64,000 bases of DNA from Lingula anatina. Its lineage: Eukaryota > Animalia > Brachiopoda. Position 1 is the stretch's first letter, and each line of letters begins with the position of its first letter. This document shows positions 51,401 to 53,965 of the stretch, in pieces. The position numbers and the translations under genes were made by a program. The DNA lies in contig CM120640.1 of the NCBI GenBank assembly GCA_051362555.1, positions 7,254,001 through 7,318,000 of the forward strand, written 5' to 3'. The notes beneath the pieces were generated by a model. That model did no database searches. It worked only from the letters and a program-made list of their open reading frames with translations, and was not told the DNA's origin.

Positions 51401-53965
51401 GGATCGATCCACAATTAGTACGACGGGGTCTGAGAATGGTTCCATAGACACTGCACTGAAATCAGAAGCAATACCACATTTTTTATTTTGCATGAAATAA
51501 AAAGTATCAAGCATAAATATGTATTTAACACTGCAATAAAAAATCTAGAAAAAGTAAATTCAGAATAGATTTTATATTTAATTTTCAATAATTGTCTGGG
51601 ATTCTTTCATGTGTTACACATTTATTATAGGCTACAGTGGCAGTTCCAACCTTTCTTCTCAAGAGGACCTCAAGCATGGAGATATATTCTCTTTTGGATT
51701 GGTTATTGGCTTCATGCACACTGGTGAAAAGCCATGGAATAAATGGAAAACACTGAGTATGGATGAGCCATCATTGCCAGAAAATGGAAAATATGATCCA
51801 TATAAAGAAAATATGCCCATGCAGAAACTTGGTGGCCCATTGAAAGATGTTTATGATGTTTGTAGAAGAGAAAAACCTGAGGAACGCCCTGGGGCAGAGA
51901 AATTGATGAAAGACTATTTCAGTAGTAAGTACAGTATATACTTTTGTCACAGGTACTAAATATTTTTTTAGGTTTGATTTTATGATTATAATTATTCAAG
52001 CTAAAAAGTCAAATATCATAATTCTGTCCCTTTTCTTTAATTTGTTTTAGTTAAGCATGATGTTGCCTTGGAAACGAGTGTTTGAACTACCTACATGTAC
52101 AATAGAAAAGTAAATTTCTGCTAGAGCAGTATACATGTTTATTCCTTGGACTATATTTGAGCATAAAATTTGTAATAAACTGGAATGATCATATATGTGT
52201 CTCTTACGTATATTATTGGTAACAAACTAACAAAATGATCATTTTTAGGTGACAAAAATCCCTACCAGTCAGAGGCCCTCAAGGCAGAGTTTTTTGTTTG
52301 TGGATTTCTCAAAGATACCAAGATATTTGTGGCAGACTCTTTGGTTGATGAGGTTTGCCTTTTTCTTATCAGCTTTAAAAAATATTCTTTATGTTGCAAT
52401 TGTAATCTGCTTTACACACATTAAGACCCTATATGTTCTTAAATTTACTGCACCATGTTGACTTTTCATGTCAACATTCCTTTAATTTTGCATGTTACTC
52501 AATCAAGTTTATTTGATAGCCAATCAACTGTGTGTCTACACTGCTCCTAAACTTTGACACAGTGTCTTCTTTTAGACTTCAGAGGGTTACTACCATAGGC
52601 GGTCAGAAAGACCTCAGGGTTACAAGATGGAGTTTCTACAGTGCAAGATAATTTTGAAACCAAATAAGCAGCCAAATTGTGATTTGCCACCTGATTGGGT
52701 TGAAGAGCAAAGGGAAACTTATAAAGCCAGCTATAAGAAGTTTAAAAAACAAGCAAAGGATAAAATTATTGATGACAATACTATCATTGCCCTTAAGAAG
52801 CTTGTAACAGACAGGGCAGGTGAGGAAGAAGATCAAAAAGTTGAAATGGAGTAAGTGTGCTATATTTGTTTGTAAAAAATGTATAATTTGTTGGGAGCTT
52901 TATATTAAAATAACATTGCACATAACTTTTGCCCCTATTATATGGTAAACTGAAAAGCAAACAGGAAAAAAAAGATCTGGTTTCACAATTCTCTAAATTA
53001 GTTTTTTTTTTTAAAGTAGGAAGCACATGTAATAAATAACTGATAAGAAATCATCAGTCCAGAGATATATTAAGATATAATAATAATAATTGCGCAAAAT
53101 ATCTTCTAGGTTTGCTGAGACTACTTATGTTCACCACCGAGCAATGCGTGAAATGTGGAGTGCCTTGACAGAGCATCAGCGCAGTGAGCTTGTTTCCTGT
53201 AAGGGGATTGTGGAACCCTACTACAGTACTTCATTTGGACTTCATGTAGCTGTGCTGACCAATGAGGGCCCAGGAAAACCTCAGAAATTTATTTTTCCAC
53301 AAAGGTCAAGAAGACCAGGTAGAGAATGAGCTTGAAATGTTCATTGCCTAGTACAATAATTTGAAATTGAGGTATAGATATTAAACAGACAATATTCTTA
53401 CCTTTTTCAAGTTTATAATAATCTCTTGATCATATAATAAATTTATTACTTCTGTCTTTTTTATGTTATTTAAGGCATGGCGAGCCCTGGAGCTTTTACT
53501 TGTGGAGCTGTTGAAAGTTGTTCAGTGAAGGATTACATTGACCCACATGCCGACCCTCTGTATCTGTCTTTAATCAGTACAGCAGCAAGAGGTCTGGAAG
53601 AAGAACTAAGAGTTGAGCTGAGGGGTGGAGACTTGGAAGCAATTTGTCTCAGTACCATTTATCTTAAATACGACACTCATGAATGGGGCATCTGCGGCTT
53701 TGTCGACTTGACAGACGAACGTATCTCAGAGGACCACAGACTTAGCTACAATCAACTCAAGTCAAGATTTACGGCAGGACCCAAGGATAAGTTTGAGCAT
53801 GAAACAGTCCATGCTGTGGATTTTGAGTTGGAACCAATGGTGGATTTTGTTCGCGAACATTACCAGACCTTTGCAAGCTCAGCCAAGCTTGTGGTTGTCA
53901 AAGTTATGCAGACCTTCTTTGGAGTACATGAAGTTGAACGTGCATTCCAAGCAAGAGACATGTAA
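42419..53965 (+). CDS. TKL-type protein kinase fused to a C-terminal divergent Nudix-like domain, 747 aa. Exons 42419-42605, 43631-43796, 44327-44525, 44739-44849, 49357-49491, 49799-49871, 51631-51924, 52249-52352, 52576-52850, 53110-53318, 53475-53965
   Basis: Frame-consistent GT-AG splicing (2244 nt). Kinase motifs [70 protein letters not shown]-terminal motifs [27 protein letters not shown] and [12 protein letters not shown] (Nudix-box-like). Confidence 0.85.
42661..42697. repeat. (CA)n microsatellite
   Basis: Direct reading. Confidence 0.9.
42855..43317. mobile_element. Tc1/mariner-pogo-type MITE
   Basis: TIRs GGGGAGAGTGGGGCTAGT / ACTAGCCCCGGTCTCCCC, TA TSD, internal ggggc/gcccc subrepeats. 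Confidence 0.75.
45167..45211 (-). mobile_element. Isolated remnant of the HINE terminus
   Basis: cttactcctgctggtggtacaataccaggaggctgatcctcta matches 1616-1670 with part of the hairpin deleted. Confidence 0.55.
45243..45410. mobile_element. CAGG-ended MITE with a 5-bp TSD
   Basis: caggcctgtagccag...ctggcaacaggcctg; TAAAT on both sides. Confidence 0.75.
45656..45823. mobile_element. CAGGG-ended MITE, family copy 2, 5-bp TSD
   Basis: caggggcggatccag...taaatccgcccctg; TAATG on both sides. Confidence 0.8.
46264..49188. mobile_element. 2.9-kb non-autonomous foldback DNA transposon (IS3EU-like)
   Basis: TATGGAAGCG...CGCTTCCATA termini, ~410-bp TIRs, 6-bp TSD AAAATG, and further internal direct and inverted repeats at 47020-48380. 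Confidence 0.8.
50313..50832. mobile_element. PIF/Harbinger non-autonomous element
   Basis: ~150-bp TIRs ggcttcgttcacatggaaagtc... / ...gactttccatgtgaacgaaacc with a TAA TSD. Confidence 0.88.
51222..51445. mobile_element. Diverged Harbinger-like MITE
   Basis: gggttcccatac...gatcgat...ctgagaatggttcc termini resemble the 42125 family; internal inverted arms. Confidence 0.4.

Follow-up and report, generated by a model that had tools for sequence, protein, structure and literature searches.

A conserved fusion of a protein kinase to a predicted NUDT22-type Nudix fold in the brachiopod Lingula anatina, with relatives in other animals and in bacteria

A 64,000-nucleotide (nt) stretch of the Lingula anatina genome (contig CM120640.1, positions 7,254,001 to 7,318,000; hereafter the window, in whose coordinates positions are given) contains a + strand gene at 42419-53965 in which an intact protein kinase is followed, without a break in frame, by a C-terminal domain predicted to adopt the two-lobed fold of human NUDT22. 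This kinase–NUDT22-fold fusion is real, conserved and apparently undescribed; a literature search, with subscription journals outside its coverage, returned no paper describing such a fusion or the domain family. We tentatively favour the explanation that the kinase is controlled by a nucleoside-diphosphate-X ligand through the C-terminal domain, and so would work like ALPK1 while being unrelated to it.

Joining of 11 exons gave a frame of 747 amino acids (aa) with one terminal stop. Residues 389-747 (359 aa) are encoded by the last four exons, exon 8 (52249..52352, aa 389-423), exon 9 (52576..52850, aa 424-514), exon 10 (53110..53318, aa 515-584) and exon 11 (53475..53965, aa 585-747 and the stop), which are joined through GT-AG introns and continue the kinase frame. 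An initial annotation made from the DNA letters had described such a continuation of about 360 aa, and all of the motifs that it quoted were found on the + strand where it had placed them. On 51600-54050, four RNA runs with the same species label contributed 4, 14, 105 and 64 reads, and only the exons and the 3' end showed depth. The kinase-to-tail intron (51924>52249) was skipped by nine reads with five start points and was listed in one of the four runs, and the three later introns were each listed in two or three of them. Loose read ends before 51629 match exon 6 (49799..49871, aa 267-290), which links it to exon 7 (51631..51924, aa 291-388). The exon for the kinase C-lobe and the tail exons are on one expressed transcript, as the initial annotation had supposed. 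Moreover, the NCBI entry P0001, a 464-aa protein labelled Lingula anatina, matches model residues 284-747 with 100% identity, across the kinase-to-tail junction. The junctions of exons 1-5 and 5-6 (42419-49799) were placed by GT-AG sites and collinearity with homologues, to which the model is collinear at up to 48% identity over 700+ aa.

An alternative is that the N-terminal kinase exons are not joined in L. anatina and that the true product is the 464-aa form, a kinase C-lobe fragment with the Nudix domain. The NCBI model P0001 begins only at Met284, the junctions upstream of exon 6 rest on splice sites and homology, and intron 4 measures 4.5 kb and holds nested inverted-repeat elements. However, exons 1-6 have GT-AG sites, a common frame and all the catalytic motifs and line up collinearly with over 50 full-length homologues, and we consider the shorter form very unlikely; the fusion at the level of the family does not in any case depend on how exons 1-6 are joined in L. 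anatina.

The kinase half carries the complete set of active-kinase elements (Gly loop, beta3 Lys, alphaC Glu, HRD-x-K-x-x-N, DFG, APE and alphaF Asp). These were followed in a 60-row alignment that comprised the model, 58 full-length animal-type homologues and protein P0088, and the Gly loop, K103, E113, the HRDLKPDN and DFG motifs, RWxxPE and D308 are kept in 54-60 of the 60 rows. Exon 1 (42419..42605, aa 1-62) encodes a weakly conserved N-terminal region for which a two-helix hairpin is predicted in a homologue, and no hydrophobic membrane segment was found in the N-terminal 200 residues of the 747-residue protein. Exon 2 (43631..43796, aa 63-117) supplies the Gly loop GQGAFG, beta3 Lys103 and alphaC Glu113, the last two each present in 59/60 rows; exon 3 (44327..44525, aa 118-184), collinear with the homologues, encodes the end of the N-lobe and the hinge. 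The catalytic loop HRDLKPDN lies in exon 4 (44739..44849, aa 185-221; Pfam Pkinase E 1.4e-11), DFG and the activation loop in exon 5 (49357..49491, aa 222-266), RWAAPE in exon 6 and the C-lobe in exon 7 (Pfam Pkinase 169-261), and homologues also score above the Pfam Pkinase cut-off. The catalytic loop is of the Ser/Thr type (KPDN) and the P+1 loop reads RWxxPE without the usual GT. Sequence and fold matches were mixed, with TYK2, CTR1, RAF, ULK1, TNNI3K and Src (tyrosine kinase-like, tyrosine and ULK kinases) at about 19-24% identity, and the class is Pkinase/PK_Tyr_Ser-Thr and not alpha-kinase.

For the C-terminal domain no model in Pfam, NCBIfam or PADLOC gave a match, and one UniRef entry, a mussel fragment, is automatically named 'Nudix hydrolase domain-containing'. 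An AlphaFold2 model built from a 59-row alignment reached a pLDDT (predicted local distance difference test) of 90.8 and a pTM (predicted template modelling, TM, score) of 0.90. Its top Foldseek match was human NUDT22 (E 2e-10, with the next family at 5e-5; TM by target 0.67-0.74), and VIA-align placed NUDT22 first with Z 22.6 and a root-mean-square deviation of 3.6 over 275 aligned residues (275-277, model range 6-355), the next entry scoring 13.7. Nearly all of the listed structural matches are Nudix-fold proteins. In the Atlas, features led to a NUDT22-like cluster (0.91) and structure to bacterial clusters (TM 0.72-0.75). The whole 359 aa, and not just the last exon, is therefore predicted to be a single NUDT22-type unit, its N-lobe encoded by exons 8-10 and its Nudix core by exons 10-11. 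Exon 8 would hold the linker and the start of the N-lobe, and exon 9 its long helix, IxDN motif and strand, for which the profile aligns to NUDT22 residues 43-149; mixed profiles retrieved NUDT22 as the top match in the PDB with residues 43-150 aligned (E 0.002-0.003, about 20 bits). The initial annotation had expected a Nudix fold and a likeness to NUDT22, and the models give both, specifically the two-lobed type. An isomerase role like that of IDI, which was among the weak matches (Z about 13), was set aside because the conserved Cys594 is off-register with the IDI Cys pair. A model of the full-length amphioxus homologue had each domain well folded and a pTM of 0.54.

The Nudix box (53504..53614) is a variant one. 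In register with Escherichia coli MutT, G595 is the first Gly of the box and R623, E627 and E628 correspond to R52, E56 and E57; G595 is followed in order by E598, an insertion of 14 residues and the segment R623-G624-L-E-E627-E628-L-R-V. The spacing from G to R is 28 residues as against 14 in MutT, and the canonical GX5EX7REUXEEXGU is departed from. The RGLEEELRV box and insertion that were described initially are present, but the first box Glu (MutT E53) is absent, RE having become RG: this position is Gly (G624) in 60/60 kinase-fusion rows and Gly, Ala or Ser in 20/20 bacterial-type relatives. Pfam NUDIX gave no match for the Lingula anatina domain and weak ones in 4/23 relatives. Other positions are held firmly. 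Y521 and R580 (53303-53305), both in exon 10 together with the SFGLHVAV strand, and E598, R623, E627 and E628 occur in 20/20 bacterial-type relatives, and D604, D689 and E692 in 19/20. A distal loop in exon 11, D689-K-F-E692-H693 (53786..53800), may provide a metal ligand or base; D689 is present in 58/60 and E692 in 55/60 kinase-fusion rows. H693 is kept in 56/60 of these rows but in only 3/20 bacterial-type relatives, and hhalign gave no meaningful alignment with Gmm, so a Gmm-like mechanism through H693 has been reduced to a lead.

Another explanation is that the domain acts as a scaffold that binds protein or RNA, as TIRR and syndesmos do, and recruits substrates to the kinase with no small ligand involved. 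These non-catalytic Nudix proteins are among the middle structural matches (Z 12-13), and the orientation of the two domains is not fixed in the full-length model. We think this quite unlikely, since the conserved residues occupy metal- and phosphate-site positions and are common to bacterial proteins, which could not share an animal partner.

The fusion is conserved across six animal groups besides brachiopods. A search with the last exon found 65 homologues at E<=0.001, a set far beyond chance, of which 64 were at E<=2e-46 and 60 had a kinase Pfam domain; the other five look like fragments, and one of these clusters with a full-length sponge protein. The 41 species-named matches come from a sponge, cnidarians, molluscs, a brachiopod, a hemichordate, amphioxus and tunicates. 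Vertebrates, arthropods, nematodes, echinoderms and annelids were not represented among these 41, which is not proof of loss. It is a spliced, expressed animal gene, found from sponges to tunicates; the initial annotation had argued from the introns for a genuine eukaryotic gene. On average the Nudix core shows 64% identity to the Lingula anatina protein, the N-lobe 46%, the kinase 38% and the N-terminus 18%, and differences between reads and genome amounted to 20 synonymous and 4 nonsynonymous in the tail exons, with 2 and 3 respectively in exon 7.

These figures bear on a further proposal of the initial annotation, that the domain could act as an integrated decoy; it would then be a bait for pathogen effectors aimed at Nudix proteins. 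Fusion to a signalling kinase and the altered box would suit such a role. Integrated decoys are typically lineage-specific and fast-changing, however, whereas this domain is better conserved than any other part of the protein (64%, with 38% for the kinase), falls into one animal clade (100/99) and varies mostly at synonymous sites; the decoy is accordingly disfavoured, and we regard it as highly improbable.

Within animals, bivalves carry a second copy of the kinase–Nudix gene and two diverged proteins that group with the sponge sequences have altered motifs (CGAVRG, RGLNDEL), so local duplications do occur. P0071, P0127, P0074, P0075 and P0063 are diverged paralogues. A 1015-aa model from Branchiostoma belcheri (P0013) has a Death domain N-terminal to the kinase–Nudix part (Pfam E 2.6e-9), which, if real, would tie the family to immune signalling; the start of the kinase N-lobe seems to be missing, and the Death domain may be the product of a merged gene model.

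Judged by sequence, rare bacterial proteins appear to be closer to the animal domain than NUDT22 is. An exhaustive HMMER search of 1.84 billion representatives returned 65 proteins and extended to some at about 28-37% identity. The animal-only profile scores 19/20 bacterial-type relatives at 17-94 bits and does not recover NUDT22 in the PDB; the animal protein is therefore not simply NUDT22 fused to a kinase. A careful tree was built from 36 chosen rows, unrooted and without NUDT22, most animal near-duplicates and the longest branches. In it the animal sequences form one clade (16/36 rows, 100/99), arranged broadly by phylum, and a 58-row tree by a quick method agrees on this clade. P0093, P0088 and P0099 join it next (98/92), apart from the 17 bacterial-type rows. 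P0088 too is fused to a kinase, one that scores highest on the animal kinase profile with 125 bits, where kinases from 80 metagenome loci reach at most 89; P0088 may represent a fusion that predates animals. In P0109, which is placed among the bacterial rows, the domain is paired with a bacterial-type kinase (39 bits on the same profile), which suggests a second, independent kinase fusion. A scan of metagenomes with P0109 returned only kinase matches, with a Nudix-like domain at 0/80 loci on the + strand. A horizontal origin of the domain is compatible with the unrooted tree, which does not give the direction of any transfer.

The domain is rare in bacteria, being present in 3/401 and 1/133 genomes and in 6/72,556 plasmids (one query). 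A word-index search with the bacterial profile yielded only four proteins, and this tool therefore under-samples the bacterial side. The domain lies at the C-terminus while the N-terminal partner varies: TIR in P0124, TIR with a hydrophobic or membrane segment in L087, a hydrophobic (membrane) segment, at hydropathy >=1.7, in 6 of the 19 proteins scored, and a helix-turn-helix (HTH) in an Atlas cluster and, by eye, in P0202. Atlas clusters also link it to TIR and hexapeptide-repeat domains. The likeness to bacterial Nudix-like fusion proteins that the initial annotation had suggested is borne out by NUDT22-fold relatives with TIR, membrane, HTH and kinase modules. All seven bacterial loci inspected were on a plasmid, near insertion sequence (IS) elements, integrase or toxin–antitoxin genes, or in a low-GC patch. 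The first is an island of lower GC that runs from an integrase to tRNA-Ser, the second is flanked on both sides by IS elements, and the third adjoins a Fic toxin–antitoxin pair; the fourth adjoins IS5, other Nudix genes and a 2H phosphoesterase, and the fifth a large open reading frame (ORF) with weak STAND/NACHT matches. The sixth and seventh are low-GC single genes, one by HipA/HIRAN/PIN and one by a metallophosphoesterase. The loci suggest a role in conflict for the bacterial relatives. No relative was found in phage records or in viral contigs, where the search was for close relatives only, and viral structures gave only one-lobed Nudix matches, with TM by query <=0.34. Two of the bacterial proteins deserve separate mention. 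That at L087:811-2400 (G075:C109), with TIR, a membrane segment and the NUDT22 fold, sits in a 31% GC patch beside a HIRAN/HipA-like pair and is a candidate single-gene defence system. On a Streptomyces plasmid (NZ_CP109170.1, L002:7944-8975), a protein that carries the annotation 'translation initiation factor 2' belongs distantly to the NUDT22-fold family, and that annotation looks wrong.

We propose that the domain is a sensor controlling its partner, because its C-terminal fold is constant, the N-terminal modules are exchangeable and the catalytic Glu has been lost throughout the family. A constant domain with exchangeable partners is typical of nucleotide-sensor domains. R580, R623, E598, E627, E628, D689 and E692 would bind a metal and the diphosphate, while specificity would be set by Y521 together with the NUDT22-type N-lobe. 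The ligand would most likely be either a nucleotide sugar or a compound of the ADP-ribose type. Without the first box Glu hydrolysis would be slow or absent, leaving the domain mainly as a sensor or timer, and the effect of ligand binding would reach the kinase by way of the short linker or by oligomerisation. Of these steps, a part in infection or stress signalling has the least support. There is some precedent for binding without catalysis: replacing EF by IL at the position of the first box Glu leaves NUDT9 and TRPM2 without catalysis, and the Michaelis constant (KM) of anemone TRPM2 for ADP-ribose stays within twofold after that change (PMC6461439).

A close rival to the sensor is an active pyrophosphatase with a relocated base. 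The protein would then be a bifunctional enzyme whose NUDT22-like half converts a nucleoside diphosphate (NDP)-sugar to nucleoside monophosphate and sugar-1-phosphate, or to NDP and sugar, and whose kinase either regulates the pyrophosphatase or is merely co-localised with it, in nucleotide-sugar or ADP-ribose homeostasis. The near-invariance of E598, E627, E628, D689, E692, R580 and R623 from bacteria to animals speaks for this, as do the presence of H693 in the kinase fusions, the activity of NUDT22, AtNUDX9 and Gmm despite degenerate boxes, and the finding that a Nudix catalytic base can sit outside the box (PMC6461439). The loss of the first box Glu across the family and the poor conservation of H693 in bacterial-type relatives tell against it, and a housekeeping enzyme would also be a poor match for the fusions with TIR, membrane, HTH and kinase modules and for a distribution that is patchy and mobile. 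We judge this reading possible, if rather less than probable; it can overlap with the sensor reading, in the form of a slow sensor that resets itself.

Several observations weigh against the sensor. A degenerate box does not equal a dead enzyme: NUDT22 has no conventional box (PMC5688067) and splits UDP-glucose (PMC10101856), AtNUDX9 is active though the box Arg and three Glu are replaced (PMC4566977), and the first Glu is likewise absent in E. coli Gmm and Idi. The retention of E598, E627 and E628 (20/20) and of E692 (19/20) in bacterial-type relatives would suit catalysis. The pTM of 0.54 for the predicted full-length model lends no support to a fixed kinase–Nudix arrangement, and several bacterial relatives (among them P0103, P0108 and P0110, possibly fragments) are seemingly without a partner. 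No second-messenger synthase was seen at the seven bacterial loci, in a scan that took in some of the neighbours and with incomplete annotation of the plasmids. In 18 and 16 proteins scanned, the PADLOC and NCBIfam defence models matched only the kinase or TIR parts joined to the domain. Finally, high conservation and low copy number are unlike the usual host–pathogen arms race.

Perhaps the sensor reading can be extended. In bacteria, an undescribed family of NUDT22-fold nucleotide sensors would trigger effectors of the membrane, TIR, HTH and kinase kinds that lie in defence islands; coupled to a kinase no later than the origin of animals, it would survive as an ancient metabolite-sensing immune kinase of marine invertebrates. 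This kinase would be a functional counterpart of ALPK1 or STING, lost by vertebrates and ecdysozoans, and would respond to a signal nucleotide. Taken as a whole we consider this scenario unlikely.

Human NUDT22, a UDP-glucose pyrophosphatase (PDB 5lor, 5lou, 5lf9, 5r50), shares the two-lobed fold over about 275 residues and a non-canonical box, but identity is only 13-16%; NUDT22 stands alone whereas the L. anatina domain is kinase-fused, and the animal domain has the family-specific motifs CGAVE...RGLxEE...HEWG...KDKFE. Bacterial NUDT22-fold proteins (for example WP_405222218.1, WP_007379091.1 and WP_329453320.1, the 'translation initiation factor 2') have the same motifs and have also lost the first Glu, but at about 25-37% identity and with membrane, TIR, HTH or bacterial-type kinase partners. 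ALPK1, an ADP-heptose-sensing kinase, carries its sensor at the N-terminus and has an alpha-kinase as its catalytic part. The L. anatina kinase is a conventional Pkinase and its putative sensor a C-terminal Nudix fold, so the likeness is an analogy only and concerns the mode of control proposed, in which a nucleotide-sugar-binding domain switches the kinase on its own chain (PMC12605129). NUDT9-H of TRPM2 is again a Nudix domain on an animal signalling protein, in which binding can persist without the first box Glu, but it belongs to another Nudix subfamily (NUDT9 was not among the best 50 structural matches listed) and to a channel, not a kinase. The SMODS-associated 2TM-NUDIX effector (CBASS, UG23) is a membrane-anchored Nudix protein of bacterial defence (bioRxiv 10.1101/2021.12.02.470933); neither the L. 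anatina domain nor the scanned relatives gave such a Pfam or PADLOC match, and the present domain is two-lobed and about 300-360 aa in length. Nudix–HTH sensors such as NrtR sense ADP-ribose (PMC9503650), and so offer a Nudix fold as ligand sensor for an attached output, with HTH fusions also among our structural neighbours; unlike the present domain theirs is small and one-lobed (Z about 12, 145 aligned), and the output is transcription. Passages in PMC9503650, PMC7159879 and the UG/Abi preprint deal with the Nudix domains of conflict systems in general terms and not with a kinase–NUDT22 fusion.

Databases name the fusion proteins by the kinase half alone and often wrongly (MAP3K7, TAO2-like, casein kinase I and others), while the better-conserved half is without a family model. 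If the kinase is ligand-gated, it would represent a small-molecule-sensing pathway of early animals that has been kept in corals, sponges and farmed molluscs and is linked to an undescribed bacterial domain family. If the domain is a plain enzyme, it would define a new subfamily of Nudix proteins with a catalytic arrangement of its own.

The remainder of the window provides some minor observations. Two introns of the kinase gene contain repeats: in intron 4, at 46264-49188, 350-nt inverted arms of 95% identity surround a second element (about 47000-48380) with inverted and direct sub-repeats, which is foldback-like or resembles a miniature inverted-repeat transposable element, and in intron 6, at 50312-50833, there is a small palindromic element with arms that are 97-98% complementary. 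About 1.4 kb upstream of the gene lies an apparently intact long terminal repeat (LTR) retrotransposon (34913-41027) with two ORFs on the - strand, one gag-like (39561-40592, 343 aa) and one of 1393 aa with protease, reverse transcriptase, RNase H and integrase (35416-39597). Over 193 nt its terminal repeats match each other at 100%, and the element seems to have inserted very recently. A gene for an oxysterol-binding protein has exons at about 5376-11522 on the + strand, with Pfam Oxysterol_BP at 9368-11519.

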